From assembly GCA_028866715.1 (NCBI GenBank), contig JAGWHO010000006.1, positions 2,005-66,004 of the forward strand: a DNA stretch of 64,000 bases, written 5' to 3'. Positions 9,967 through 63,970 of this stretch are shown piece by piece (the stretch's first letter is position 1; each line of letters starts with the position of its first letter). The translations under genes were made by a program, and so were the position numbers. Origin of the DNA: Candidatus Micrarchaeota archaeon. Its GTDB lineage: Archaea; Micrarchaeota; Micrarchaeia; Micrarchaeales; Micrarchaeaceae. Under the pieces are notes generated by a model. It was not told where the DNA came from, searched no databases, and saw nothing but the letters and a program-made list of their open reading frames with translations.

Positions 9967-10158
9967 CTATTAACATAAAACGCGTCAGTAATCGGCCGAA
10001 AGTGTCGACGTAAAACCGATTTTCATCGCCTTGCGCACCCAGCTCCCGAGGGAACGTGTAGACTATTCCTGATAAGCTTTAAATACCAAGATGAGCCTTG
10101 GCAGAACTTAAAGTAGCAAAATAGGTTTTTTCAGTAAAAATGACGTCGCATCAAAGGC

Positions 10159-10626
10159 TTATTCGCGGCTGACTGCGACGTTATCGCACTCCTCCTCGAA
10201 TTCCCTGTTGAGGTCGCGCCAGGCAGTCTTGTATGCGTCGTAGCAGCTCTTGTCAGCTACAGCGTAATTGAGCCAGCCGTAGAAAGCGGGATCCCTTATG
10301 TTCATCTCTGCGACTTCCTGGATGTCCGTGTTCCTCACATTTTTCCATTTCGATTCCCTGGCTGCCATATGCTCGGCAGCGATCTCGCCAAGCTCCGACG
10401 AGTTCAGGCCCATCACCCCTCCATTGGTCATGCAGTTCGCTGTCTTCCATGAATGCGATTTTGAGAATGAGGCGACGAGTACGGCTGCGGCGTGCAGCGT
10501 CTTCTCTTCGTTTGACAGGCTTGAAGATACCCTTTGTCCCGGTTTTACTGTGCTTGTTCTCTGCGAAAGTTTTCTTATCTTGTCAGCCAGTATATCGTGC
10601 TTGGTCAAGTTATACTTTATTGGCAT
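10159..10626 (-). CDS. hypothetical protein (155 aa)
   Basis: Only long ORF in this interval with host-like codon usage. No motif recognised. Confidence 0.45.
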   Translation of the reverse strand: MPIKYNLTKHDILADKIRKLSQRTSTVKPGQRVSSSLSNEEKTLHAAAVLVASFSKSHSWKTANCMTNGGVMGLNSSELGEIAAEHMAARESKWKNVRNTDIQEVAEMNIRDPAFYGWLNYAVADKSCYDAYKTAWRDLNREFEEECDNVAVSRE

Positions 10627-10725
10627 TCTAGTCGCCGTACACCCTTATGTACCCCGAATAACCATTTAACGGCAAAATATATAAGCGTTAGTTACAATAA
10701 ATGCACAGAAACAAAGGCGATTTCA

Positions 10726-11139
10726 ATGGGAATATTCAACATATTCGGCAAGAAAGACGTCACGGCAGACATAACAAAGAATGTCCCGTTCAGGTTGTCA
10801 ACGGAACTGGTCCCTTACAGGCTTTACGCGAAGAAGAACAGCAGCGCGTCGCTCATTGTGCGCGTGAAGAACGTGACTAATGAAATTCTGCTGACGTCGG
10901 TGGTGCTCGAACTCCCGAGCCAGCTCGGCTTTGATTCTGTAGGGATGTCAAAGCAAAGGGAGATCAGGGTTGGGGAGGTCGCGCCGCAAGACGAGAAGGA
11001 AGTGAAGTTCGAGATCTTCGGCACCGCTAAGTCAGATGCTGGCGAGTACACCACCACCTTGACCGCGATTGCTCACTACAGGGACTACGGGCATGTGCTC
11101 AATGCCGTTAAGAAGAGAACAACGATAAACGTTGTCTGA
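10726..11139 (+). CDS. hypothetical beta-sandwich (CARDB/DUF11-like) protein
   Basis: The track ORF 10534..11139 overlaps the upstream gene, so I trimmed it to in-frame ATG 10726 (MGIFNIFGKKD...). An alternating beta-strand pattern ends in AGEYTTTLTAIAHY, which resembles CARDB-type domains. No signal peptide. Confidence 0.5.
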   Translation: MGIFNIFGKKDVTADITKNVPFRLSTELVPYRLYAKKNSSASLIVRVKNVTNEILLTSVVLELPSQLGFDSVGMSKQREIRVGEVAPQDEKEVKFEIFGTAKSDAGEYTTTLTAIAHYRDYGHVLNAVKKRTTINVV

Positions 11140-11481
11140 TTATTTCTGCTGCTCAGGCTGTGGCTTCGGTTGCGGCTCTGCAACTGTCTTCTCGTTCAGG
11201 ACGCTCACAGCTCCGGCAAGCATGTCCGCCACCTTTGCGCCCTTTGGCGTGAGCCTCACCTGCTTTATCTTTCCGTGGCGCTCGCTCTCGACAATGCCCA
11301 TGGTCTCGCACGCCGATATGAAGTTGCATGCATGAACGTAGGTTGTGTCTGCAGCCTTCGCCAGCGTCGATATGTACCAGCTCTGCGAGCCGTCCCTCAG
11401 GGCAAGAAGTATCTTCAGCTGCTTGTTCTTGAACAGTATGTTGCCGTTTATCGCTGCCACGAAGCTTTTGTTCAACAACAC
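11140..11481 (-). CDS. winged-helix transcriptional regulator (MarR/ArsR-like), Pro/Gln-rich tail
   Basis: KILLALRDGSQSWYISTLAKAADTTYVHACNFISACETMGIVESERHGKIKQVRLTPKG has an HTH-plus-wing layout. Confidence 0.6.
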   Translation of the reverse strand: MLLNKSFVAAINGNILFKNKQLKILLALRDGSQSWYISTLAKAADTTYVHACNFISACETMGIVESERHGKIKQVRLTPKGAKVADMLAGAVSVLNEKTVAEPQPKPQPEQQK

Positions 11482-11604
11482 AATAAAAAGCTATGCAAAA
11501 CCGCAACTCGATTGGCTGGGAGCTCAAATATTCCGCTAACTGCCAACGGCACAAGGTATTAATAGTTTCTGTTAAATACTATATCGCGACTATAGGTGAA
11601 ATGC

Positions 11605-11856
11605 ATGGTAAAGTTCATAATAGCAAAACAGCTGGTAGGGAAGAAAGTAATAACGACAGACGGATACGACCTTGGAAGGTTTGTAGATGCGGAAGTAAGC
11701 GAGGTAACTGGCAAGATCGTCAACATGTTAGTCGAGCCCAACCTTGACAGCAGCATGGCTGCGAAGCTCAAGTCCGAGGACGGGCAGCTCAAGATTCCGT
11801 ACGCCGCAATCGACGCTGTCAATGACTACATAATGGTCAACAGAAAGAACATGTGA
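11605..11856 (+). CDS. PRC-barrel domain protein
   Basis: MVKFIIAKQLVGKKVITTDGYDLGRFVDAEVSEVTGKIVNMLVEP matches the archaeal PRC-barrel pattern. I moved the start to ATG 11605 because ttaaatactatat lies about 25 nt upstream. Confidence 0.7.
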   Translation: MVKFIIAKQLVGKKVITTDGYDLGRFVDAEVSEVTGKIVNMLVEPNLDSSMAAKLKSEDGQLKIPYAAIDAVNDYIMVNRKNM

Positions 11857-11881
11857 TTCTCGGCCATCAAGCGGTAGAGGC

Positions 11882-12595
11882 TTGTTTTGTGGTGGTCCGA
11901 TAATAATATGCGGCGGTGATGAGGCTGGGCGCGGCGCCATAATAGGCCCGCTAGTCATAAGCCTCGTCTCTGTCAAGAAGAGCAGCCTTCACCTCTTGTC
12001 GGAGATAGGGGTCAGGGACTCCAAAATGCTTCCTGACGAGCGGAGGAGGGCCCTTTTCAAGGAGATAAGCGAGATAGCGTCAGATGTCAAGGTGGCCAAG
12101 ATACTGCCAAGCGAGATAAACGACGCGATGCGCAACAAGATATCGCTCAACGAACTGGAGGCAGTGCACTTCGCCAGGCTGTTCGACACAATTCCTCATG
12201 ACATAAACACGGTCTATCTCGACTCCCCAGACGTAGTCGCGGAGAAGTTCGGCATACGATTCAATATGTCATCGGCCAAGCCAACAAAGGTAGATGGCAT
12301 CAAGGGCCCTGCTGCAAAGGGCATAAAGTGCGCCAAGATCATAGCCGAGCACAAGGCAGACTCAAAATATGCGGTCGTATCCGCGGCAAGCATAATAGCA
12401 AAGGTCACGCGCGACAACGAGATCAAGAAGCTTGAACGGGAATTGAAGATGAAGATAGGCTCAGGCTACCCGTCAGACCAGAAGACCGTAGACCTCATAA
12501 AGAAGAACCTGAAGAACGATTCCCTAACGCAGCACATAAGGGAGCGCTGGTACACAATGGAGCGAATAAAGCAGACATCGCTCACGAGCTTCTAA
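11882..12595 (+). CDS. rnhB: ribonuclease HII
   Basis: GGDEAGRGAIIGPLV (DEAGRG catalytic motif), DSKML, AEHKADSKY..VSAASIIAKV and GSGYPSD are present. Confidence 0.9.
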   Translation: MFCGGPIIICGGDEAGRGAIIGPLVISLVSVKKSSLHLLSEIGVRDSKMLPDERRRALFKEISEIASDVKVAKILPSEINDAMRNKISLNELEAVHFARLFDTIPHDINTVYLDSPDVVAEKFGIRFNMSSAKPTKVDGIKGPAAKGIKCAKIIAEHKADSKYAVVSAASIIAKVTRDNEIKKLERELKMKIGSGYPSDQKTVDLIKKNLKNDSLTQHIRERWYTMERIKQTSLTSF

Positions 12596-12643
12596 GTCTA
12601 AGATTCAGCAACCCTTTTTATTCTGTTAGCACCATCTACTACT

Positions 12644-12718
12644 GGATCTGTGGCGTAACTTGGATAGCGCTCTCGGCTTCGGACCGAGCGGTTGCGGGTT
12701 CAAATCCCGCCAGATCCG
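12644..12718 (+). tRNA. tRNA-Arg (anticodon TCG), no intron
   Basis: Hand-folded cloverleaf. Acceptor GGATCTG/CAGATCC, D stem GCGT/GCGC, anticodon stem CTCGG/CCGAG with loop CTTCGGA, and T arm GCGGG-TTCAAAT-CCCGC. Discriminator G. A T-rich box lies about 25 nt upstream. Confidence 0.9.
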
Positions 12719-12723
12719 CGAAA

Positions 12724-12735
12724 GCTTTTAAATCG
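12724..12735 (+). promoter_or_regulatory. BRE/TATA-like box (aaaGCTTTTAAATCG) for the pilin-like gene
   Basis: Lies about 35 nt upstream of the TTG start at 12765. It matches the recurring (A)AGCTTTAAAT box in this window. Confidence 0.4.
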
Positions 12736-12764
12736 CTTCATTACATAACTAAACAGGTATTAAC

Positions 12765-15041
12765 TTGGGCAAATCAGGCAAAGCGCAGTCTGCAATGGAG
12801 TACCTGGTCACGTACGGCTGGGCCATCCTGATCATCGCGATAGTGGTCTCGCTCCTGTATCTTTACGTCATAGTTCCCAGCACCGTAGTCCCGTCTTCAT
12901 GCACATTCGTATCTGGCGCATACTGCAACAACATAATAGTCGGTACAAACCTGCAGACGCACGTGACGAAACTCGCGGTGTTCCTAACGAACACGCAGCC
13001 GTATCCGCTTGCCAATCCTGCTCTCATAGTAAGGACGGGCAACGTGAATTCGACTCCATACGCGTGCTCCCCTACGTTCGTCCTTGCAGGCGGCTCGGTC
13101 GTCTGTACAGTAACCTTGCCTGTACAGACCTCTTTATCGCAGTTCCTTGCCGGCAGTTTCTATCTGACGGGAACTTATTGTGGCTTATCTTCCAATTACC
13201 AGATAACTCATACCTGCACTGGCCAAGTGCAGACGTACTCAGGCAGCTTCACGTCGCACGTGCAGCCTCTTATCAATACCAATAACATAGTCCTCTTCAC
13301 TGCGCAGAACACGACGAACCCAGCCAACAACGCGAAGGATCCGTTGCGCGCGACAGTTCTGCTTCTCGGTTATCCGCTTAAGGGAGCGACAGTGAACTTC
13401 ACGGAGAACGTCACATCGTACAAGTTGCAGCCAAACCTCACGACGACAAACACAACCGGTGTAGCGCTTTCGTACATATGGGGCACTAGGACAGGTAACG
13501 TCATGGTCAATGCCGTTTATGCAGGCATCTCGAACAGCATCACAATACAGTTTACACCGCCAACAGTCCTGCTGTTCTCGGTTTCCGGATTCGCATACTG
13601 CGGCCAGGATTCCGCGACAATGGTGGTTATCGACGGTACTCCATACACCTGCGCCCAATGGCTCTCATCTCCATTGGCGTGCGGCGCAGGCTCATCCCAC
13701 ACGTACAACTTCTCAAGGACAGTTTCAATATCGTCATCGATACGCGAGATATTCAACAAGGTCATAGTCAACGGCATTTCATCGACATCCAACCACAGCA
13801 CCATAATCTGCCCAAGTGCAAACGAGTCGATAATCGCCAACTACACTACGCAGTTCTATCTTACTGAGACATCTAACCCTGCCGGAGGAGCGGCAACCCT
13901 AACGCCAGGCAGCAACTGGTACAACAACGGCTCCGTGCAAACGCTTTCCGAGACCGCAAACCCAGGATACTTCTTCAACTCATGGTCCTGCACAGGCACA
14001 GGATGCTACACAGGTTCATTGACATCGACATCCCTGCCTGTCAACGCTGTAATCAGCGAAACAGTCAATTATTACTCAACAACATCTACATCTACTACAT
14101 CTACATCCACATCAACTACGACTACCTCAACTTCAACCACTAGTACAACAACAATAACACAGACATACAATCCACCAGGCGGAAACTACAACGGTGACAT
14201 AATATACTCACAGAACACACAGCTATCAAGTCCTGCAATAGCCTCCAACATGATCCTTGTCGAGAGTGGAGTTAGCGTAAATGAGTATGGAAATTACCTG
14301 CAGGGCAACGCATCATTTTATAATTATGGGACTGTCACAGACGCATATTCAGGAGGCGCTGGCGGTGCAGGGGGATCTGGCGGCTACTATTATGATATTG
14401 GAAACTGTAACTCCCCGCAAAACTCCGCTCCGACTTCCGGAAAAACAGGTGCAAGCGGGGTATCAAAGGTCAGCCACTTCATAAGCCAAACGCTTGCCGG
14501 TGGCACCGGTGGCGGCGGTGGCGGTGGCGGTGGCCAAGGAACCTGTACAGCCGATGTGCCTGGCCTCTCTGGCGGCAAAGGAGGCAATGGCGGAGGCATA
14601 GTCGAGATATATGCAAGCGCGTTCAATAATTATGGCATACTCAATGCCAGCGGCTTCCCTGGCGGCTCTGGGTCTCAGGGCAATGGCTGTTATTCATCGG
14701 GAGGGGGAGGAGGCGCAGGTAGCGGAGGCAACGGTGGCACAATAATGATAGGGTATTCGAACAGCATTACACTTGGCACTGTCTACTACTCAGGTGGCCC
14801 AAGTGGTTGGTATACAACTAATAACATAAACTGCGGAGTTAATGGCGGAGGTTCAGGTGGCGGAGATGCAGGTGGAGGAGGAGGCGGCGGAGGATATGCT
14901 GGCGATACTGGTAACAACGGTGCAGCAGGTGCTTTTGGCGCTTGTGGTGGGACGGGAAGCAGCGGCGTTGGCGGCAATGGATGCACCGGCACATCAGCCC
15001 CATCATCAGGAACATTGATAGAGAAGGTATGGACGCACTAA
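12765..15041 (+). CDS. large surface protein with class-III (archaeal type IV pilin) signal peptide, Ser/Thr linker and Gly-rich C-terminal domain
   Basis: The N-terminus MGKSGKA|QSAMEYLVTYGWAILIIAIVVSLL shows the prepilin-peptidase motif. An S/T tract lies at 14076-14159. The last ~230 aa contain repeated GGxGG runs, including G9-type tracts, with interspersed Cys. Confidence 0.75.
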   Translation: MGKSGKAQSAMEYLVTYGWAILIIAIVVSLLYLYVIVPSTVVPSSCTFVSGAYCNNIIVGTNLQTHVTKLAVFLTNTQPYPLANPALIVRTGNVNSTPYACSPTFVLAGGSVVCTVTLPVQTSLSQFLAGSFYLTGTYCGLSSNYQITHTCTGQVQTYSGSFTSHVQPLINTNNIVLFTAQNTTNPANNAKDPLRATVLLLGYPLKGATVNFTENVTSYKLQPNLTTTNTTGVALSYIWGTRTGNVMVNAVYAGISNSITIQFTPPTVLLFSVSGFAYCGQDSATMVVIDGTPYTCAQWLSSPLACGAGSSHTYNFSRTVSISSSIREIFNKVIVNGISSTSNHSTIICPSANESIIANYTTQFYLTETSNPAGGAATLTPGSNWYNNGSVQTLSETANPGYFFNSWSCTGTGCYTGSLTSTSLPVNAVISETVNYYSTTSTSTTSTSTSTTTTSTSTTSTTTITQTYNPPGGNYNGDIIYSQNTQLSSPAIASNMILVESGVSVNEYGNYLQGNASFYNYGTVTDAYSGGAGGAGGSGGYYYDIGNCNSPQNSAPTSGKTGASGVSKVSHFISQTLAGGTGGGGGGGGGQGTCTADVPGLSGGKGGNGGGIVEIYASAFNNYGILNASGFPGGSGSQGNGCYSSGGGGGAGSGGNGGTIMIGYSNSITLGTVYYSGGPSGWYTTNNINCGVNGGGSGGGDAGGGGGGGGYAGDTGNNGAAGAFGACGGTGSSGVGGNGCTGTSAPSSGTLIEKVWTH

Positions 15042-39550: not shown

Positions 39551-42310
39551 ATGGCGCCCCCACTCAGATCTGCAGGACCGGAGAAGAGCGAGCTAGTCCA
39601 GGAGATAATAAGGAAGCACCACAAGACCCCCATCGCTGTCTATAAGATCAAGGACATGATAATGGAGCTGTCGGGCAATCCGCACTTCATGGACATGATC
39701 CTGTTGCTCCTTGCTTTTATAGCGTTCGTCTCCGCGTTCCCGTTTTATCCGATTGAGCTGCTGATAATATTCGGCATAGTGCTGATTGTCGCGTCGCTCA
39801 AGCACCCGTTCCTGGGCCTCTGCCTGCTCATGGCGCTGATGTTCCCTATAATAATGTACCAAACCCCGCCGCTGGCGTGGGTGTTCATGCTCCTTGTCAG
39901 CGCGTCCCTCATATTCGGGTACAAGTACTACAGGACCATAGCATTTGCCTACGTGCTTGTGGGCCTCGGATTCTCGCCTTTAGGCAGCATCCTTGAGATA
40001 CCCGTCTTCGTGATTGCGCCTCTGATAATAGGATATAAACGCGGACTAGTGCTTACTGCGCTCATGGTCGCAGGCATAGTCATGTTCAGCGGTGTCACAG
40101 GCGTACAGAACAGCGGGTACATACTTTACAATGCCGCTACCGCTCATGCGATACTTAGCACAAGCCCGATATCCCCGCTTCTCACGCCCCACAATCCTGT
40201 GGTGCCTGCATCTATGCTCGGTTCTGCGATATCCCAGTCGTATGCAATTTTCGCCAGCGGCTCTGTGCTTGGAGACATAACCTACGAGTTCAACACCCTT
40301 ATCAGCGCACTGTTCATAAATCCGGGCGCATACGTTGCCGAGTTTCTAGGCATGCTCGCGATAGTCGTAGCTATAGACTTCTACGCCGTGACCAAGAGGT
40401 CGAAGTTCAAGGGCACAATAGCGTCGCTCATAGGCGCGGCCTTCCCGCTCCTGTATCTCGGTCTCGCCACTGTGTCGAAGGCACCATATGTCACGTCATT
40501 CCTGCCGTTGCTCAGCTTCGCCATAGCGCCTGCGCTTATGTACCTGCTTGAGCTGTACGGCATCAACATCGTCAAGGCTCTCGAGGTGAGGAAACAGGAC
40601 GTCAGATTGAAGTTCGGGGAGGCGTTCGAGGATCTCGAGGCCGGCAACGCAACGCAGACATTCGATGACATAGGCAACTACGAAGCAACAAAGAGGGAGC
40701 TGAAAGAGGCTGTGATTGCGCCCATAGAGGAGAAGGGCGTTGCACGCGCATACAACATAAAACCAGCAAAGGGCATACTGTTCTTCGGCCCCCCGGGTAC
40801 CGGTAAAACCATGATGATGAGGGCGCTCGCGAACGAGATAAGGGCAAGCTTCTACCTTGTCAAGGCGCCCAACCTGATATCAGCGTTTCCAGGAGAGACC
40901 GAGCGCATGATATCTAACATATTTGCTGTTGCGAAGAAAAATTCGCCGTGCGTGCTATTCATCGACGAGATAGACTCTGTCGCGAGGAACAGGGAGAGCG
41001 CAGACGTAGACGAGGCGCACAGGCACGCGCTTTCCCAGCTCCTGCAGGAGATCGACGGATTCCAGAAGATAAACAAGGTCATAATAGTCGGGGCCACAAA
41101 CGTGCCGCAGCTGATAGACCCGGCAATGATGAGGCCCGGAAGATTCGACAAGATAATCTACATGCCGCTTCCTGACCTTAATGGCAGGAAGAAGATATTC
41201 AAGATATACCTGAACAAACTGCCGGCCTCGAAGGACATAGATCTTGACAAGATCGCTGAAGAGACGGAGAGGTACTCTGGCGCAGACATCAAGGTCGTGT
41301 GCGACAACGTAGCCCAGATGGTCTCGCAGGAGGCCACATCGCAGAACAGGGTGCTTGAGATAACGCAGGAAGACATACTCGACATCATAAAGTCGACTAA
41401 GCCGTCAACAAGCTTCTCGCAGCTAGAGGATTACAACAAGTTCAGGATTGATTATGAGAGAAGAAGCTTCGAGGAGGGGAAAGTAGAGAAGGCGCCGCAG
41501 ATAAGCATGGACGACGTCGTAGGACTCGAAGAGGCCAAGAAGGCGATAGTCGAAGCGATACAGATACCGTTGATGCATCCGGAGCTGCTCAAGAAATACG
41601 ATATCAAGCCGATCAACGGGCTTTTGTTGTTCGGGCCTCCAGGAAACGGAAAGTCCATGCTCATGCGCGCCGTAAGCAACGAGATGAAGGGCATAACCAT
41701 ACTTGAACTGCGCGGCTCGGAGTTCGCGGGCAGGGACAAGGAGAGCGCATCAGAAACTATAAAAGAGGTGTTCAACAGGGCGCGCGAGAACATCCCATCG
41801 ATAATCTTCATCGACGAGATAGATAGCATCGTGCCTAAAAGGGAGAACGCCACCCAGTCGACCCTCCAGATGACCGGTGAACTGCTGCAAGAGATAGACG
41901 GGGTCAAGCAGCAGTCCGGGATAGTGGTGATAGCAGCAACGAACAGGCCCGACTCGCTGGACACTGCAATACTCAGGCCAGGCCGATTCGACAAGCTCAT
42001 CTTCGTGAAGCCGCCTGCGCCCGAAGATCGTGCAAAGCTGTTCAAGATATATTTGCAGCAGGTGCCTGTCAGCAAGGACATGGACTACGCAAAGCTCGGC
42101 ACCCAGGCGAAGGGCTTCACCGGCGCAGACATAGCCAACATGTGCAGGGAGGCAAAGACCAAGGCATTGGAGGAGAACATCAAGACAGGAAAGGATGTCG
42201 AGATAACCATGGCGAGCATGCTCGCGATAATAAACGAGACAAAGCCGTCCGCGCCGGACACCGTGATAAGCATATATCTGTCATTCTTGGCAAGGTACGG
42301 CCAGAGATAA
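39551..42310 (+). CDS. polytopic membrane domain fused to Cdc48/VCP-like tandem AAA+ ATPase
   Basis: Residues ~40-345 form about 8 hydrophobic helices. D1 follows (GPPGTGKT, LFIDEIDS, RPGRFD, pore-loop-like AFPGE). D2 follows that (GPPGNGKS, IFIDEIDS, RPGRFD, pore-loop-like EFAGR). No Cdc48 N-domain and no protease domain are present. Confidence 0.85.
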   Translation: MAPPLRSAGPEKSELVQEIIRKHHKTPIAVYKIKDMIMELSGNPHFMDMILLLLAFIAFVSAFPFYPIELLIIFGIVLIVASLKHPFLGLCLLMALMFPIIMYQTPPLAWVFMLLVSASLIFGYKYYRTIAFAYVLVGLGFSPLGSILEIPVFVIAPLIIGYKRGLVLTALMVAGIVMFSGVTGVQNSGYILYNAATAHAILSTSPISPLLTPHNPVVPASMLGSAISQSYAIFASGSVLGDITYEFNTLISALFINPGAYVAEFLGMLAIVVAIDFYAVTKRSKFKGTIASLIGAAFPLLYLGLATVSKAPYVTSFLPLLSFAIAPALMYLLELYGINIVKALEVRKQDVRLKFGEAFEDLEAGNATQTFDDIGNYEATKRELKEAVIAPIEEKGVARAYNIKPAKGILFFGPPGTGKTMMMRALANEIRASFYLVKAPNLISAFPGETERMISNIFAVAKKNSPCVLFIDEIDSVARNRESADVDEAHRHALSQLLQEIDGFQKINKVIIVGATNVPQLIDPAMMRPGRFDKIIYMPLPDLNGRKKIFKIYLNKLPASKDIDLDKIAEETERYSGADIKVVCDNVAQMVSQEATSQNRVLEITQEDILDIIKSTKPSTSFSQLEDYNKFRIDYERRSFEEGKVEKAPQISMDDVVGLEEAKKAIVEAIQIPLMHPELLKKYDIKPINGLLLFGPPGNGKSMLMRAVSNEMKGITILELRGSEFAGRDKESASETIKEVFNRARENIPSIIFIDEIDSIVPKRENATQSTLQMTGELLQEIDGVKQQSGIVVIAATNRPDSLDTAILRPGRFDKLIFVKPPAPEDRAKLFKIYLQQVPVSKDMDYAKLGTQAKGFTGADIANMCREAKTKALEENIKTGKDVEITMASMLAIINETKPSAPDTVISIYLSFLARYGQR

Positions 42311-43154: not shown

Positions 43155-44462
43155 GTGATAAGCGTAGACATTGTTTTCTTGTTCATTGCTGCGGTTGCAT
43201 TTTTGGGCTTCGTCCTTAATGCCGCATTTGAGCGAATAAGGATAGTGTACATTCTTCCGCTTATGCTGATTGGGGTTCTTGTCGGGCCGGTACTCGGATT
43301 CGTAAACACAGGGTCTGGAAGCGTAATATCAACGCTAACTCCTTACATCACGGCAATTACTATAGCAATCATACTGTTTGATGTCGGGCTCAACATAAAT
43401 ATCCGGAAACTCAGCACGATCATAGCAAAGGCGACTGCCTTCACGTTTGCCATAGGCGTGGCGACCGGAGTGGCCACGGCAATCCTAACTTCGTTAATAT
43501 TCGGCTGGACAATGCTCGACGCTCTGATTTTCGGGTTCGCGATAGCAGGCACCACGACTATAGGCATGCCAATGATCGTCAAGCTCATAAAGCTCCCAGA
43601 TTCTCTCAAGGCAGCAATTGTGTATGAGAGCATAGTCTCAGACACGTACCAGCTTATAGTGCCTACGCTCATATTCACGATTATCGCTACCGGGAGCATA
43701 ACGATACCAGCTGCGACGTATCTTGTGCTTGTGAACGTCTTCGGAGCGATAATCTTGGGGGGCATAACAGCGCTTTTCTGGCTCTACGTGATGAGAAGGT
43801 TCGAGAACTACAGCAGGGAGTACGGATGGCTTCTGACCCTTACCATGATAATAGCGACATACGCTATTGCTGACGAAGCTGGCTTCAGCGGCCTTCTCAC
43901 AGTATTCGTCTTTGGGATCCTTTTCGCTACAATAGGCAAATACGAGAGCGAACGCAAAGGGTCCATATCTGGCCAGATTATAAGCCGGTACCTATTCATC
44001 GGAGCCGCAGTCGACCATATAAAGGAGTACCAAAAGGAGATAGCGTTCTTCACAAGCACGTTCTTCTTCGTATACCTTGGCCTGCTCTTCCAGATATCTG
44101 CGGTCTCGTACACTGATATCCTTGCCGTGGCTCTGATATGCGTTGTCATAGTCGTCCTCCGTTTCGCGCTTGCGCCGAAGATCCTGCGCGGCCTGATGTC
44201 CAAGCCTGCCGATACCTTCAAGAGAGAGCGCATGATGGTGTCCCTCAACATGGCGAGAGGGCTCTCCCCGGCTATAGTGGCCACGTTCCCCCTGGTCTAC
44301 GGAGTCGTAATCCCGGAGTTTGTCAATTCGATATTCCTTGTGATACTATTCACCAACGTAATAGCCACTGCGGGCATATTCCTGCTTTCGAAACCTATCG
44401 TGGAGGAGGAGAAACCTGATGATAAAGCGCACAGCGGAGCAGCAGGCGCAAAGGCAAAGTAA
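43155..44462 (+). CDS. monovalent cation:proton antiporter (CPA1/CPA2 Na+/H+ exchanger family)
   Basis: About 12 TM helices with typical motifs (ILFDVGLN, SDTYQLIV). Short Lys/Ala-rich tail. Confidence 0.83.
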   Translation: MISVDIVFLFIAAVAFLGFVLNAAFERIRIVYILPLMLIGVLVGPVLGFVNTGSGSVISTLTPYITAITIAIILFDVGLNINIRKLSTIIAKATAFTFAIGVATGVATAILTSLIFGWTMLDALIFGFAIAGTTTIGMPMIVKLIKLPDSLKAAIVYESIVSDTYQLIVPTLIFTIIATGSITIPAATYLVLVNVFGAIILGGITALFWLYVMRRFENYSREYGWLLTLTMIIATYAIADEAGFSGLLTVFVFGILFATIGKYESERKGSISGQIISRYLFIGAAVDHIKEYQKEIAFFTSTFFFVYLGLLFQISAVSYTDILAVALICVVIVVLRFALAPKILRGLMSKPADTFKRERMMVSLNMARGLSPAIVATFPLVYGVVIPEFVNSIFLVILFTNVIATAGIFLLSKPIVEEEKPDDKAHSGAAGAKAK

Positions 44463-44507
44463 GCCATCAAATGCCTTAGGCGGCCTTGGCCAGACAGCGT
44501 CTTCAAG

Positions 44508-44544
44508 TGGGCCCGAGGAGAATCGAACTCCTGTTTCTAGCGTG
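44508..44544 (-). repeat. orphan copy of the tRNA-Val 3' half (att-like direct repeat, copy A)
   Basis: tgggcccgaggagaatcgaactcctgtttctagcgtg is identical at 37/37 positions to 46237-46273. No matching 5' half lies adjacent. Confidence 0.92.
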
Positions 44545-44602
44545 AGTAAGTTGACCCAAGCTGTATTGAATGGATTAATTGAGGGGGGACACATTCACGG
44601 AA

Positions 44603-44616
44603 CTTATATAAATTTT
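44603..44616 (+). promoter_or_regulatory. TATA-like box (cttatataaatttt) inside the islet
   Basis: Lies 30-40 nt upstream of ATG 44646. Confidence 0.4.
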
Positions 44617-44645
44617 ATCCTTGAGTGATAAATTAGGTTGTTACT

Positions 44646-45791
44646 ATGAAAATATCAAAGGAGAGGTTTTTCGCGCCAATAGTAATAGCATTGGTGCTTC
44701 TAGGTGGTGTATCAGGGTATGCGATAGCTTCGAATTATAACAGTATCTCTTCATATAAGGTGCCAGTGGGGTTCCCTGGGGTTTCAAATATTATCTCATT
44801 TGGGAATGCAGTAGCTCCGGTTGTGATGGAGTCTCAACAATTCCAAAAAGTGGCAAATGGTGTCGTATATCATACAGATCAATATTCAAGTTTTGGATAT
44901 ACATGGGGGCCTGGAATAAACTCTACTGAACGAATAATCTTCTTCTCGCCGGATAATTCTTCTTATATTGTGTCTGATATCTACGTTTCCAACAAAACAA
45001 TACAAGATATCTACTTCATAAACAGAACAAAAGTTCATGTAAGTTTTCCAGGCGCCTCAAGCAATTACGGGGGCTATTACTCTGAATATTGTAGCGGCAC
45101 ATTTTTTGGAACATGTACAGGCGAATCTACACTGTCCGAAGTGTATGGAAAGATTCAAATTCCTGGCACTATAAGTAAACCAAGTACTGGTTGCAGTACT
45201 TCGGCGTGTGCGGTTTTTGGCTCTTGGACTGGCGTCTCAGTAGACGGTTCTGGCGCCAACTTAACACAAGGTGGAATATCGTGGTTTGGGTTCAACGTAA
45301 CTCCACCAAGCAACAATAGAAACGGGTTCTCTTTGTTTGTGCAGCGCTTGCCTAATAGCCCAACATTTATAACGCCTCCTTCGGGGTGGATATTAAGTGG
45401 TAACACCGTCAATATGACTACCGAACCAATGGCAAATTGTGCCAACACCGGAGATGATTGGTATCAGTTCTGGAAGCTTGGGGGGTCATCTACGAGCCAG
45501 GCTATAGGTTGTGATAGTCCAACAAATATCTACTATGGTTGGTATATCTTTGAATCCCCTGCAGGATGCAGTGGCTCAGGATGCTACAGCGGTCTCTACC
45601 AAATCCCCGAAGTCTCAAGCATGAGCTTTACTGGAAACATCTGCAACAATGTCGGGACATGCAGAAACATAAATAGCAACAGCGATCCAATCCAAGGCTA
45701 TTATATACAGCACAATAGTCAGGATACATCAACTGGCACTATCTCAAGTGGCGGAAACTCATGGACCGAAAGCTGGCTTAGTAGTAGCTAG
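44646..45791 (+). CDS. secreted protein, probable glutamic peptidase (G1/eqolisin, 'peptidase A4') homologue
   Basis: N-terminal signal/anchor (FFAPIVIALVLLGGVSGYAIA). Motif order matches scytalidoglutamic peptidase as I recall it: SSNYGGYY (cf. SNWGGAI), IQIPG, FGSWTGVSVDG...LTQGG (cf. AWVGIDGD...LQTG, with catalytic Gln) and GWYIFES (cf. AEFIIED, with catalytic Glu). Confidence 0.5.
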   Translation: MKISKERFFAPIVIALVLLGGVSGYAIASNYNSISSYKVPVGFPGVSNIISFGNAVAPVVMESQQFQKVANGVVYHTDQYSSFGYTWGPGINSTERIIFFSPDNSSYIVSDIYVSNKTIQDIYFINRTKVHVSFPGASSNYGGYYSEYCSGTFFGTCTGESTLSEVYGKIQIPGTISKPSTGCSTSACAVFGSWTGVSVDGSGANLTQGGISWFGFNVTPPSNNRNGFSLFVQRLPNSPTFITPPSGWILSGNTVNMTTEPMANCANTGDDWYQFWKLGGSSTSQAIGCDSPTNIYYGWYIFESPAGCSGSGCYSGLYQIPEVSSMSFTGNICNNVGTCRNINSNSDPIQGYYIQHNSQDTSTGTISSGGNSWTESWLSSS

Positions 45792-46236
45792 CGCCAAAAT
45801 GTGGTTCAATCAAAACCAAAATTCTTTTTTGGGTTGTTGGCGTACTTATTTTAGTATTATTCCTTGTATTTGTACCAGTAATGAGCCCACCCTCATGTAA
45901 CCCAGGCCAGCCGCCTGGTGGGCACATTTGCCTATGGTATGGAAGCCTTGATTCAATAACAATGTACTATTTTCATTTTGGCGGGCTGTTCGACAATGGT
46001 GACTATATGGTGCTGTGATAAAAACACACTATAGTCCCATACGATTGAAATTTTGATGCAACTCAGGTAAAAGACCTTAGTCCAGCTACACCTTACCCAT
46101 CTCAAGTTCAGTGAAGCGAGCCATGTTTTTCAGGACTGTTCGAAACCACACAGAAAACGCGCTCCGAACTTATCCATGCTTCCATGATTGTGCAAAAGTG
46201 CGGAGTCATGTCGCCATTTACGATGTCATTTCTGGA

Positions 46237-46308
46237 TGGGCCCGAGGAGAATCGAACTCCTGTTTCTAGCGTGTAAGGCTGGCGTCTTAACCACTGGACC
46301 ACGGGCCC
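46237..46308 (-). tRNA. tRNA-Val (TAC), no intron
   Basis: Acceptor GGGCCCG/CGGGCCC, anticodon stem CCAGC/GCTAG (with a C28-A42 mismatch) and loop CTTACAC. T arm AGGAG-TTCGATT-CTCCT. Discriminator A. Its 3' 37 nt (46237-46273) form repeat copy B. Confidence 0.85.
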
Positions 46309-46313
46309 CAGAA

Positions 46314-47558
46314 TTATCTCGAATGCCTTCTGCAGAATTTGTTAATCCTATTTATCGCCAAGTCTAATATCTCTTGCGGTGCCAGCGCAACGATCCTGAA
46401 GTGGGACGGGGCGCCGAAGCCAGACCCTCTTGTTACCTGCACGTCCTCTTCTTTCAAGAGACTGTCGACGAATTCCCTGTCGTCCTTGAACTTCGTCTCT
46501 TTCAGGTCTATTTTGGGCAGTATATAGAATGCGCCGTTCGGCCTCACAGTGCTGAACAGCGGGTTCTCATTGAGGAGCTTTGTGGCGTGATTCGCCCTCT
46601 TCTCTATCGCTGATACCATTGTGTTTATCGCCCTCTTGTGCTCAACTGTGTTGTTTATCGCCTCCGCGGCTGCGTACTGGGCCGGGGTATTGACCGACAG
46701 CCTCATCAGCGCGTAATCGTAGAGCTTCTCCCTAATGGCAAGCGATGTTTTGTCATTCTCAGGCGTTATTGCAAATCCTATCCTAAAGCCAGTAGAATCG
46801 AAGACCTTTGATGCGCCGTTGAGTACCATATACGGCATTCCCTTAGCGAGCTGGCACACGCTCGTGAATTTTGCCTTGTTGTATACTATCTCGTCGTATA
46901 TCTCATCGCTTATCAGGAGCAGCCTGTACTCATTCGCAAGATCCACGACTTCCTTCAGCACGTTCCTGTCAAGGACTGTGCCTGTGGGGTTGTTCGGGTT
47001 CGTTATCATCATGTACTTTACCCTATTGAGCTTGCCGTCTGCCTTGAGGCGCTTCAGCGATTTGGAGAGCCTTTCGACATTGATGTTCCAGTCCTTGGAC
47101 CCGTCATACTCCTCGTATATAGGCCTCCCGCCATGAGTCTTTAGTATGGGAAGGTAGAGCGAGTAGTAAGGCCTGAAGAGTATGGCTCTATCACCTTCGT
47201 TCATCATGGCGCTGTCGATGAAGAGCAGCGCTTCGGACACGCCTGCCGTGACAAGCACGCTATCTGGATCGGCGTCCAGCTTGTAAAGCCTCCTATATCT
47301 CTTTGCAACAGCCTCGCGGAGAATATCCGCTCCCTCTGACTTTGAGTATGTGGTCCTGTGCTCCTTTAGCGCTTCGATGTATGCGTCAAGTATGTACTTA
47401 GGAGTAGGGAAATAGCTGGGAGGGTCTCCCCTGCTCAATTTTATTATCTTCTCTCCTTTTTTCTGAAGCTCGAATGCTACCCTATCTTCTTCTTCAATCG
47501 GGTTCTCAGCATATCTGCTCCTGTCTGAAAACAGCATCCAACCACATCTATACTTCAA
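46314..47558 (-). CDS. class I/II pyridoxal-phosphate aminotransferase (aspartate/alanine type)
   Basis: NPNNPTG, SDEIYDE and the PLP-Lys motif GASKVFDSTGFRIG. Confidence 0.88.
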   Translation of the reverse strand: MKYRCGWMLFSDRSRYAENPIEEEDRVAFELQKKGEKIIKLSRGDPPSYFPTPKYILDAYIEALKEHRTTYSKSEGADILREAVAKRYRRLYKLDADPDSVLVTAGVSEALLFIDSAMMNEGDRAILFRPYYSLYLPILKTHGGRPIYEEYDGSKDWNINVERLSKSLKRLKADGKLNRVKYMMITNPNNPTGTVLDRNVLKEVVDLANEYRLLLISDEIYDEIVYNKAKFTSVCQLAKGMPYMVLNGASKVFDSTGFRIGFAITPENDKTSLAIREKLYDYALMRLSVNTPAQYAAAEAINNTVEHKRAINTMVSAIEKRANHATKLLNENPLFSTVRPNGAFYILPKIDLKETKFKDDREFVDSLLKEEDVQVTRGSGFGAPSHFRIVALAPQEILDLAINRINKFCRRHSR

Positions 47559-48246: not shown

Positions 48247-48888
48247 TCATCTTACAGTGCTAGAAGGGCATATGTCCTTCAGCACGCATCTCTCGCAGTA
48301 TTTTACCCTTGCAGTGCATGTATCTCTCCCCAACGCGATAAATAGGTGTGACACGTTCGACCACTCCTTCTGCGGGAACAGCCTCAGCATCCTCTTCTCG
48401 ATCTTTACCGGATCCTTGCTTCTTGCCAGGCCGAGTCTGTTTGTTACGGTTATGCAGTGCGTGTCTATGGCCATGCCCTCGTTTATCCCATAAGCATTTG
48501 AGATCACGACGTTCGCAGTCTTCCTGCCTACTCCTGGCAGCGTAATAAGCTGCGCTATTGTCCTTGGCACTCTGGAATTGAACCGCGCGGTCAGGAGTCT
48601 TGATGCCTTTATGATGTTCTTGCCCTTGTTCCTGTACAGGCCGATGCTCTTTATGTAAGGATACAGCTCCTTTGGCTCCAGAGCCGCGTAATCCGCCGGG
48701 CTCTTGTACGCCTTGAAGAGCTTCGCGGTTATCTTGTTGACCTGCTTGTCCTGCGCCTGGGCTGAAAGAATAGTCGCAACAAGCAGCTCCCATGGATTGC
48801 TGTGGTAAAGATACGTGCGCATATCCTTGCTGTATCTTCTCCTAAGCCTGGAAAGTATCTCACGTGTATAGGAAGCAGTGACGCGCAT
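48247..48888 (-). CDS. nth: endonuclease III (HhH-GPD, [4Fe-4S])
   Basis: HhH LPGVGRKTANVV, catalytic-Asp context AIDTH, and the cluster motif C-x6-C-x2-C-x5-C (CTARVKYCERCVLKDIC). Confidence 0.9.
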   Translation of the reverse strand: MRVTASYTREILSRLRRRYSKDMRTYLYHSNPWELLVATILSAQAQDKQVNKITAKLFKAYKSPADYAALEPKELYPYIKSIGLYRNKGKNIIKASRLLTARFNSRVPRTIAQLITLPGVGRKTANVVISNAYGINEGMAIDTHCITVTNRLGLARSKDPVKIEKRMLRLFPQKEWSNVSHLFIALGRDTCTARVKYCERCVLKDICPSSTVR

Positions 48889-48938: not shown

Positions 48939-49595
48939 GTGGCGGGTGGTAAGCTTCTATCGGAGAAGCAGTCAGCAGAGCTTGCGACCAGGCTCAGCGC
49001 AGCTTACAAGGAAGCGCATTACTACCTCAATTTCAAGACGCCGATAGATCTAGTCGTTGCGGCTATAATCTCGGCGCAGACCCGGGACGAGACTGTAAAC
49101 AGACTGACTCCAGCGCTTTTCGCAAAGTACAAGACAGCAAAGGACTACGCCAACGCAAAGCCGGATACGCTCACGAACGACATAAAGAGCGTCAGCTTCG
49201 CAGGAAACAAGGCAAAAAACATAATCAGCACATGCAAGGCGATAGCTGAGAAATACAATGGCAAGGTGCCTGATACAATGGAAGAGCTTGTAGAGCTGCC
49301 AGGGATTGGAAGAAAGACTGCGAACACCATATTGATAAACGCTTACGGCAAGATTGAGGGCATACCCGTAGACACATGGGTGATAAAGCTGTCGTATAGG
49401 CTTGGCCTCAGCCTAAACACAAATCCTGACAAGATTGAGGTCGATCTCAAGTCAAGGATTCCTGAAAGGCTGTGGGGCAAGTTCGCCTATGTGCTCAAGA
49501 CTCACGGAAAGACGCTGTGCAAGGATGTCCCTATCTGCAGCAAATGCCCTGTCAATGGGATCTGCCCAAAGAACGGAGTCACCAAAAGGGAGTAG
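48939..49595 (+). CDS. second endonuclease III-family glycosylase (paralogue)
   Basis: LPGIGRKTANTILINAYG, PVDTW and CKDVPICSKCPVNGIC. It is divergent from nth with a 50-bp spacer that contains a palindromic aaatattta box. Confidence 0.85.
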   Translation: MAGGKLLSEKQSAELATRLSAAYKEAHYYLNFKTPIDLVVAAIISAQTRDETVNRLTPALFAKYKTAKDYANAKPDTLTNDIKSVSFAGNKAKNIISTCKAIAEKYNGKVPDTMEELVELPGIGRKTANTILINAYGKIEGIPVDTWVIKLSYRLGLSLNTNPDKIEVDLKSRIPERLWGKFAYVLKTHGKTLCKDVPICSKCPVNGICPKNGVTKRE

Positions 49596-62561: not shown

Positions 62562-62582
62562 CTGAGGACCAAACTTGATATG

Positions 62583-62654
62583 TGGACTCTGCGGGATTCG
62601 CACCCGCGGCCTTCCGCTTGCAAAGCGGACGCTCTACTCCTGAGCCAAGAGCCC
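62583..62654 (-). tRNA. tRNA-Ala (TGC) with G3-U70; T-loop reads TGCGAAT
   Basis: Acceptor GGGCTCT/AGAGTCC with a G3-T70 wobble. Anticodon stem TCCGC/GCGGA and loop TTTGCAA. T arm GCGGG-TGCGAAT-CCCGC. Discriminator A. Confidence 0.85.
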
Positions 62655-63066: not shown

Positions 63067-63244
63067 TCTACCCTAATAACCCGATTACCTTTATAGCCCA
63101 GGTTATTAAGCCTTTTCCCGGGGTAAGGCATTCGTGGAACGAACATGCCGTCGGCAATCTCGAGATAACGAAGATTTATACGCATGCTGTCCTAGGTTCG
63201 CAATCTATATATATTTGGAAAAGCTTAGTCAAATATGTGAGCTT

Positions 63245-63970
63245 ATGGGGAGAGGCGGAGATCCAGACGAGGGAACACTAGAAAGGGTAAACTTTCTAAG
63301 GAACCAAGCAGACGAGCTTAACAAACAGGCAGAGGACATAAAGCGCCTGATAACGGACATAAACAACTTCCATATCACTGCCGAGACGCATGAGAGCGCC
63401 AACGAGCACAGGATAGCTGCAGACTACTTCGAATACGAGGCAAAGGCAATCGGAAAGCTTGGCGATCCTAGCTACAAAGGCCGGGAGACGGAGGCATGGT
63501 CAAATTTCGCAAAGAACTCTGCGATTGCTGCTGATAATTCACTTGAGCATGCCGACAACCAGGCATTAAAGACTTATGAGAGGTGGGAGACACTGGAGGC
63601 GGCGATATATAGATATGAAGGTGCCTTACGTGGGCTGACACATATGGACATTGATCGTGAATCTACTCAAGAACTGAATCAAAAATGTCTCGTTGGTCTG
63701 GCAAGAGCTACAATATACCAGTTCAACGTCATAAGGCGCAGTGACCTATATGGGGATGAAAAGGCCTATAAACTTGAAGAGCTTGTACCAACGGCAAGCG
63801 TAGCATTAGAGAGGGCAAGCGCAGCGCACCTTGACAAGGAGGTCACAAACCTGATAAAGATAATGGATGACTACTTTATCGACAAGCAGAGGCATTTGGA
63901 TCGTGAGAAAATCTCTTTCCAAACCTCTGTAGATCGTGTGTCATTGAAGAAGACAACATCCACAAGCTAA
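63245..63970 (+). CDS. hypothetical helical protein (241 aa)
   Basis: Trimmed to ATG 63245, with ctatatatatttgg 30-40 nt upstream. No motif recognised. Confidence 0.5.
   Translation: MGRGGDPDEGTLERVNFLRNQADELNKQAEDIKRLITDINNFHITAETHESANEHRIAADYFEYEAKAIGKLGDPSYKGRETEAWSNFAKNSAIAADNSLEHADNQALKTYERWETLEAAIYRYEGALRGLTHMDIDRESTQELNQKCLVGLARATIYQFNVIRRSDLYGDEKAYKLEELVPTASVALERASAAHLDKEVTNLIKIMDDYFIDKQRHLDREKISFQTSVDRVSLKKTTSTS

Follow-up and report, generated by a model that had tools for sequence, protein, structure and literature searches.

The 64,000-nucleotide stretch of DNA analyzed here (in the following, the window) comprises positions 2,005 to 66,004 of the forward strand of contig JAGWHO010000006.1 (GenBank assembly GCA_028866715.1), part of a metagenome-assembled genome (MAG) of a Candidatus Micrarchaeota archaeon from the DPANN group. 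It contains a 1,692-bp islet bracketed by two direct copies of the 3' part of a tRNA-Val gene. We consider it probable that this islet is an integrase-less derivative of a tRNA-targeting integrative element that was inserted by a tyrosine recombinase, i.e., a unit resembling a cis-mobilizable element (CIME). Its main gene encodes a protein with the predicted fold of eqolisins (peptidase family G1), and relatives of this protein are found on integrase-bearing, tRNA-bounded elements of other archaea.

Base-by-base comparison showed that positions 44508-44544 (copy A) and 46237-46273 (copy B) form a direct repeat with identity at 37 of 37 nt (TGGGCCCGAGGAGAATCGAACTCCTGTTTCTAGCGTG), in full agreement with the initial annotation, which had already described copy B as part of an intact tRNA gene and copy A as an orphan. 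The pair is the sole long exact repeat of the window; the 37-mer gave only these two matches even when three mismatches were allowed, and none was obtained in 100 dinucleotide-preserving shuffles. The identity ends abruptly, with the bases outside the repeat differing at once on both sides. Copy B, the tRNA-proximal attachment site (att) copy, lies on the minus strand within an intact tRNA-Val(TAC) gene (46237-46308, minus strand) that was called by ARAGORN and matched the Rfam tRNA family RF00005 with 61.3 bits (E = 4e-12). In tRNA numbering, the repeat spans nt 36-72, from the last anticodon base (nt 36, position 46273) to the discriminator (position 46237). Copy A, the tRNA-distal att copy on the minus strand, comprises the same nt 36-72 and begins 45 nt downstream of the stop codon of an antiporter gene; it has no adjoining 5' half, and neither ARAGORN nor Rfam called a tRNA there. 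A second tRNA-Val 5' half was not found in the window with three mismatches allowed.

The Rfam alignment of the intact tRNA-Val flagged a C28-A42 mismatch, which had been pointed out before as common to both copies, and additionally a C13-A22 mismatch that had escaped the earlier description. Given the identity of the two copies, A42 would have been present in both attB and attP and does not reveal in which direction the exchange took place. Two features of tRNA targeting are evident at the locus: an intact and a partial copy of the tRNA gene occupy the ends of the insert, and the repeated block is confined to the 3' part of the gene, with the tRNA restored. The boundaries of such blocks may be related to the sublocation classes of integrases within tRNA genes that were reportedly distinguished by Williams in 2002. 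Archaeal integration events that left one full and one partial tRNA copy are well documented (PMC9897764, Fig. 3); an example is PYG1 of Pyrococcus yayanosii, which is flanked by 44-bp repeats at a tRNA-Gln gene (PMC9897764).

The islet is also set apart by its composition. Its GC content is 0.426, compared with a window mean of 0.503 and a standard deviation of 0.019 for segments of 1,692 nt, and no other segment of this length in the window is as low. For a comparison at the gene level, the 48 non-overlapping open reading frames (ORFs) of the window with at least 150 amino acids were ranked. The islet ORF at 44646-45791 came last in GC content (0.433), in GC content at third codon positions (GC3; 0.406 versus 0.639 ± 0.053, z = -4.4), and in codon-adaptation index (0.493, z = -3.3). 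The foreign appearance that had been noted by eye was thus borne out by windowed GC and codon-adaptation analysis, with the islet at the extreme of the window on each measure.

The islet consists of an att pair around DNA that carries no recombination or transfer genes, which is the organization of CIMEs. None of its ORFs gave a Pfam or PHROG match, and an element-encoded integrase was not found. A split integrase of the SSV type was rejected as well: the reading frames crossing the repeats rejoin to only about 70 amino acids without Pfam or PHROG similarity, and there is no integrase-like frame in 45792-46236. Both the lack of integrase, transposase, and replication genes and the short product of the rejoined frames had been anticipated in the initial annotation. 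An insertion as a transposon with target duplication was rejected on the ground that terminal inverted repeats are missing at the islet ends; to our knowledge, 37 nt is also far longer than known target-site duplications.

Based on these findings, we propose the following scenario. A circular mobile element would have carried an attP copy of tRNA-Val(TAC) nt 36-72 and would have been inserted into the tRNA-Val gene of the Micrarchaeota host by a tyrosine recombinase. With the strands exchanged in or close to the anticodon loop, the intact tRNA gene would have been rebuilt from the host 5' half and the incoming att block, and the displaced native 3' part would have been left as an orphan beside its original downstream neighbor, the antiporter gene. 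A later deletion of the integrase and the remaining genes may then have reduced the element to a CIME-like stub of 1.7 kb, composed of the two att copies, the peptidase gene with a putative TATA promoter of its own, a small ORF without a canonical start codon, and a non-coding stretch of 218 bp. An attL/attR footprint of integration into tRNA-Val, as suggested at the outset, is supported by the boundaries, by the composition, and by the relatives of the cargo gene on tRNA-bounded elements that bear integrases.

These relatives form a small and patchy family: a set of 185,579 species representatives yielded four loci, and the family occurs in genomes of Micrarchaeota and of the Nitrososphaerales type. 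In locus L003 (GCA_027386525.1), the peptidase homologue lies between 20-nt repeats at 8354-8373 and 13150-13169, the latter of which overlaps the 3' end of a tRNA-Ser(GCT) gene. The segment 8356-13175 of this locus recurs with 92% identity at 8857-13733 of locus L018 (JAKASL010000003.1, 'archaeon isolate YP1.bin46'), and the flanks of the two segments are unrelated. The occurrence in two unrelated contexts therefore identifies a discrete mobile unit of 4.9 kb (4.88 kb) bounded by repeats of the tRNA-Ser 3' end. A gene in L003 encoding a 429-aa protein adjoins the tRNA gene; the family of this protein (1,799 matches, mostly from Nitrososphaerota) is named 'site-specific integrase' by NCBI and 'XerC/XerD/integrase' by JGI. 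The 429-aa protein itself had no Pfam, PHROG, or PDB match, and its putative function as an integrase follows from the source annotations of its family and from motifs recognized by eye. In both loci, the peptidase gene is preceded by a partial duplicate: a 143-aa ORF at 9368-9799 of L003 represents a second copy of the N-terminal third of the family protein and stands directly upstream of the full-length gene (9803-11050), and the same arrangement is seen in L018 (9869-10300, followed by the full-length gene at 10304-11551).

The L018 locus contains further units of this kind. Between 4890 and 13733, a 15-mer from the tRNA-Ser 3' end (TGGGCCGGAAGGGAT) occurs five times in direct orientation (positions 4890, 5705, 7318, 8860, and 13713) over 9 kb, with 0.09 occurrences expected. 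These 15-mers delimit units of 0.8, 1.6, 1.5, and 4.85 kb, and the three small ones contain one gene each and no integrase. The genes encode a Fic-like 240-aa protein (HPFLNGNKR motif, assigned by eye), a 383-aa membrane protein, and a 321-aa membrane protein with a winged helix-turn-helix (wHTH) domain. An intact tRNA-Ser gene was not called in the 21.5-kb locus. The small units lie beside an integrase-bearing element, and stripped units of this sort are therefore a recurrent outcome.

The closest homologue of the islet protein (65% amino acid identity) is encoded in locus L010, 1 kb downstream of an integrase gene (PF00589, E = 6e-12; phrog_216, E = 1e-20). The region between the two genes (940-1145) contains many copies of the motifs CAGATTAA and TTAATCTG, with three 22-nt units arranged in tandem at 1077-1142; the copies may represent arm-type recombinase binding sites or iterons. 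In a further Micrarchaeota MAG (L016, DAHUYR010000030.1, 2838-4109), a 983-bp unit is enclosed by 226-nt direct repeats with 88% identity, the first of which begins with the last 11 nt of a tRNA-Asn(GTT) gene. The unit encodes a MazE-like antitoxin (PF04014) and an ORF that resembles RelE/ParE by eye, and a peptidase homologue starts 70 nt past the second repeat copy. Other peptidase homologues adjoin genes for a DDE transposase or for FtsK/HerA-like ATPases.

The cargo gene of the islet (44646-45791, plus strand) encodes a protein of 381 aa. Its upstream region (44545-44645, plus strand, GC content 0.35) comprises the putative promoter and leader, with an archaeal TATA-like box (CTTATATA) at 44604-44611 and an AGGT motif 9-12 nt ahead of the ATG. 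The protein is composed of an N-terminal signal-like segment, a helical pro-region, and a beta-sandwich. Its N-terminus shows a charged and then a hydrophobic stretch that ends with AIA|SNY and may serve as a Sec signal, and the protein is rich in NxS/T sequons and cysteines. The assignment of a TATA box and of a single ORF for a secreted protein to the islet was reproduced in this form, including the hydrophobic N-terminus.

Sequence searches with the 381-aa protein gave no Pfam or PHROG match, and its family, 21 clusters in 5.8 billion proteins, is unannotated. An AlphaFold2 (AF2) model built from the family alignment was of high confidence, with a pLDDT of 84.4 and a pTM of 0.85. In a Foldseek comparison, the best matches among solved structures were scytalidoglutamic peptidase (SGP; 2ifw_A, E = 5.9e-9, TMt 0.74) and 1s2b (E = 4.2e-8), with a further match to aspergilloglutamic peptidase (AGP; 1y43_B, E = 9.3e-6). 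According to the AF2 model and the Foldseek matches, the protein exhibits the G1 fold, a beta-sandwich of two seven-stranded antiparallel sheets as in SGP and AGP. In the family alignment, Q208 and E303 are invariant across all 21 members, as are W194-x-G196 and the Q208-G-G motif. Aligned by hhalign to the SGP sequence, which was checked against PDB entry 1s2b_A, Q208 falls on the catalytic Q53 and E303 on E136, the alignment itself being weak (E = 0.012). The spacing of 95 residues between the two lies inside the range of 82-95 tabulated for bacterial and archaeal G1 peptidases (PMC3009609). Q208 and E303 are named here as a candidate catalytic dyad.

The corresponding Pfam family, PF01828 (Peptidase_A4), did not match the window protein and matched only one of the 21 family members (E = 0.045). 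A profile search of PDB sequences with the 381-aa protein was likewise negative, and the structural link comes from fold comparison only. A viral origin of the cargo was rejected, as there was no PHROG match, no family member in IMG/VR, and no meaningful fold match in BFVD. Taken together, the cargo protein is probably an eqolisin-like, secreted, acid-active peptidase, though not a curated member of family G1; we infer the protease activity from the modeled fold and the candidate dyad.

Downstream of the cargo gene, about 445 bp remain before copy B, for which the initial annotation had claimed the absence of a convincing gene. It is true that no canonical ORF is present, but the region does harbor a conserved ORF of 65 codons for a small transmembrane (TM) protein (45821-46018, plus strand) without a canonical start. 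The frame beginning at 45794 encodes a TM helix and a Cys/Trp/Tyr-rich tail; its product shares 65% identity (E = 1.3e-18) with P0256, a 73-aa protein from a JGI metagenome, and the DNA from about 45798 to 46018 is 77% identical to that of locus L022. In the window, ATT stands at 45821-45823 where the homologue has ATG, and the sole canonical in-frame start, an ATG at 45881, lies past the TM helix. The ORF thus resembles a second gene that is inactivated or translated only weakly, and the exchange of ATG for ATT suggests decay of the islet. A frameshift at the T6 run at 45825-45830 was ruled out by the L022 alignment, which contains substitutions only. Because the small gene of L022 has no peptidase gene ahead of it, the islet is regarded as a mosaic. 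The tail of the small ORF (approximately 47 aa) also matched 6-17 tandem stretches with 28-29% identity in proteins P0255 (1,721 aa), P0257 (959 aa), and P0258 (384 aa); P0258 resembles a translated DNA repeat, and these matches may be low-complexity artefacts. The remaining 218 bp (46019-46236) represent a non-coding spacer without an ORF, Rfam match, or integrase similarity, and no structured RNA was found by Rfam in the entire 445-bp tail.

The islet was also recovered from an independent assembly. A Logan contig assembled with k = 31 (L009, SRR16630570) has a length of 1,752 nt, equal to 30 + 1,692 + 30 with repeat sequence in the two outer parts and the islet in the middle, and breaks exactly at the repeat. 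It differs from the window by one synonymous single nucleotide polymorphism (SNP) at 45152 (G/T). The k = 31 unitig of the left flank (L011) stops inside copy A; it ends 28 nt into this copy and not after the expected 30, which points to a SNP within the population of SRR16630570 near position 44505 or 44536. L009 confirms the sequence of the islet and of the repeat, and a k = 31 graph is blind to the difference between an integrated islet and an empty site plus a circle.

Several observations weigh against an integrated and subsequently stripped element. The Logan unitigs fit an empty site accompanied by a free 1.73-kb circle equally well. No integrase, excisionase, or replication gene and no recognizable pseudogene fragment of one was found in the islet or elsewhere in the 64-kb window; remnants of an integrase were sought by tblastn with three integrases, by phmmer, and with a hidden Markov model built from 32 sequences (30 thaumarchaeal and two from PF00589) against the 613 stop-to-stop frames of the window, and nothing rose above noise. 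In the collections searched, neither an empty site nor a circular junction nor an element with attP was encountered, and the exact 37-mer had no match in IMG/VR or in JGI metagenomes. A relaxed 24-mer retrieved 35 loci, all with single copies and mostly intact tRNA-Val genes of unrelated archaea. When an empty site was sought via the antiporter gene, the scan of genome contigs yielded no relative, homologues having at most 58% amino acid identity, and the contexts of the nearest relatives (P0025, P0024, and P0023) were non-syntenic or too short. L010 resembles the islet only within the ORF, and a direct parent element was not identified. Finally, in all ten homologue loci compared (L001, L003, L005-L007, L010, and L016-L019), the GC content of the peptidase gene lies 3-12 percentage points below that of the neighboring DNA, so the low GC may partly reflect amino acid composition and not foreign origin.

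The last point is consistent with repeated transfer of the gene and/or with the composition bias of a secreted protein rich in Asn, Ser, Thr, and Tyr. The islet is nevertheless still read as foreign because GC3 is largely independent of the amino acid content. As to the ancestral arrangement of the site, a contig with an antiporter gene of 58% identity (L021) shows by eye a convergent tRNA-like T-arm and acceptor end 27 nt past the stop codon; the contig ends there, and Rfam gave no call. This geometry would match that of the orphan copy beside the antiporter and faintly hints that a tRNA gene originally occupied this position.

Instead of being debris, the islet could be an active minimal cassette, with the att-cargo-att unit still excised and re-integrated by a tyrosine recombinase encoded at another site of the genome or on a co-resident element, as an archaeal counterpart of CIMEs and integron cassettes. 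In its favor, neither att copy is damaged and the two agree throughout (37/37), the cargo gene is likewise undamaged and is preceded by a putative promoter of its own, and similar units exist in the L018 array of att-bracketed, integrase-less single-gene units beside an integrase-bearing element and in the 983-bp toxin-antitoxin unit of L016 with its repeats starting in tRNA-Asn. We nonetheless consider this unlikely, as a cognate integrase was not seen in the 64 kb, no second islet or copy of the 37-mer turned up in the collections searched, and the start-less second ORF suggests decay. The 37 identical bases would be expected after any recent event, with no selection needed, and the repeats of the L018 and L016 units have diverged to 84-88% identity. 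A bolder version, in which the islet is one case of a general, still-active archaeal system that captures, stacks, and exchanges integrase-less tRNA-att cassettes with one gene each by means of recombinases acting in trans, with the four units of L018 and the unit of L016 as further cases, is a little less likely again. Lower still we rate an insertion without a dedicated integrase, by RadA-dependent or microhomology-mediated recombination of foreign circular or linear DNA that carried a tRNA-Val fragment. This would account for the absence of an integrase from islet and window, and the tRNA-linked repeat of L016, which with 226 nt extends far past the tRNA, resembles a Campbell-type homologous insertion more than a short att core. 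However, a repeat of 37 nt offers little length for homologous recombination to proceed efficiently, the exact limits of the block at the anticodon and the discriminator are the hallmark of an attP that has evolved so as to restore the tRNA, and for relatives of the cargo gene a linkage to integrases is demonstrated.

A mis-threaded assembly, in which an uninterrupted antiporter-tRNA-Val locus and a separate element (a circle or another strain) sharing the 37-mer were joined, would explain why the Logan unitigs (k = 31) terminate at the repeat from whichever side they approach it, where the de Bruijn graph leaves the path unresolved, and the sequence is indeed a MAG. Against this very improbable explanation, 37 nt is shorter than normal reads and the larger k values of assemblers, so that reads should support the 69-kb contig across the repeat; a 1.73-kb circle without a replication gene is implausible as a replicon; and the geometry of orphan and intact copy is exactly that of real integrations. 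In falling order of probability, we thus place an element that is debris or mobilizable in trans before an insertion by homologous recombination, and the latter before an assembly error. Hardly credible, finally, is a split tRNA, with the orphan copy as a functional 3' half that is joined in trans to a separate 5' half as in Nanoarchaeum equitans. The DPANN host and the start of the fragment near the canonical split/intron position 37/38 would fit, but an intact tRNA-Val(TAC) with an identical 3' part lies 1.7 kb away, the window contains neither a second 5' half nor a complement of the would-be leader (44545-44564), ARAGORN and Rfam detect nothing tRNA-like around copy A, and the DNA upstream of the half is the divergent promoter region of the peptidase gene.

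The islet lies among genes of the host. On the left, a gene for an NhaP-type Na+/H+ antiporter (43155-44462, plus strand; PF00999, E = 8e-29) encodes a protein 100% identical to one deposited for a 69-kb contig of a 'Candidatus Micrarchaeota archaeon' MAG. On the right follows a gene for a class I/II aminotransferase (46314-47558, minus strand; PF00155, E = 1e-64). By Pfam, the neighborhood comprises archaeal housekeeping genes, with a diphthamide synthase, a Cdc48-like AAA protein, and the aminotransferase. The gene at 39551-42310 (plus strand) encodes a 919-aa protein with two AAA (Cdc48-like) domains behind a hydrophobic multi-span N-terminal region of approximately 350 aa, i.e., a membrane-anchored double-AAA architecture. 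At 48247-48888 (minus strand) and 48939-49595 (plus strand), two HhH-GPD (endonuclease III-like) paralogues are arranged back to back in divergent orientation. A second low-GC patch (0.425-0.43) is located at approximately 51.0-51.6 kb, and no tRNA-derived repeat was found for it. The same holds for a 278-aa ORF at 63134-63970 near a tRNA-Ala gene (62582-62654), which has a GC3 of 0.48, low codon adaptation, and no Pfam match.

With the islet read as the remnant of an integrative element, the locus documents horizontal acquisition via a tRNA gene in a DPANN (Micrarchaeota) genome. Micrarchaeota genomes are very small and their carriers depend on hosts, so acquired secreted enzymes are potentially relevant to feeding. 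A further result is a strongly divergent branch of the eqolisin (G1) fold that had not been annotated before and is carried by small integrative elements of acid- and soil-associated archaea (Micrarchaeota and Nitrososphaerota). Integration into a tRNA gene followed by loss of the integrase is textbook knowledge, and the value of the case lies in annotation and cataloguing unless trans-mobilization of the mini-cassettes is shown. If such mobilization did take place, an integron- or CIME-like platform would here have supplied a Micrarchaeota episymbiont of reduced genome size with a secreted acid protease.

Compared with peptidase family G1, represented by the scytalidoglutamic and aspergilloglutamic peptidases and by pepG1 of Alicyclobacillus (PMC3009609, PMC6154417), the islet protein has the beta-sandwich fold in common. 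The Q...E dyad and the motifs NWGG, W-x-G, L-x-Q-x-G, and I-x-E also match, as does the predicted secretion with a pro-region in a lineage that is often acidophilic. In contrast to the known members, it remains below the threshold of PF01828, has a length of about 380 aa, contains additional Cys-rich insertions and numerous N-glycosylation sequons, and has a predicted activity. The stand-alone tRNA 3' half in a DPANN genome, which starts near position 37, recalls the split tRNAs of Nanoarchaeum equitans, from which the locus differs in having neither a 5' half nor a complementary leader in the window and in the complete gene nearby.

Elements of the pNOB8 and TKV types integrate into tRNA genes of archaea by means of tyrosine recombinases. 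With these and with PYG1, the islet shares a repeat of approximately 40 nt from the 3' part of a tRNA gene and an atypical composition of the insert. Those islands and proviruses have sizes of 10-40 kb and carry the integrase gene beside att, whereas the islet measures 1.7 kb, has no recombinase, replication, or structural gene, and resides in a DPANN episymbiont with a reduced genome. CIMEs, known from Streptococcus thermophilus, are att-flanked units that have kept only their cargo and no integrase; they derive from integrative and conjugative elements (ICEs) through deletion or accretion, and the integrase of a related element can excise them in trans. The islet corresponds to them as an att-flanked, integrase-less cargo unit; CIMEs are bacterial and their trans-mobilization was demonstrated experimentally, whereas for the islet no helper integrase was found in the 64-kb window. 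The 4.9-kb tRNA-Ser element of L003 and L018, which can be likened to the integrated elements of Thaumarchaeota, resembles the islet in its peptidase homologue (approximately 42-45% amino acid identity), in the direct repeats of a tRNA 3' end, and in its small size. It differs by the putative 429-aa integrase, a wHTH membrane protein, a shorter repeat of about 16-20 nt, and its occurrence in another archaeal phylum.

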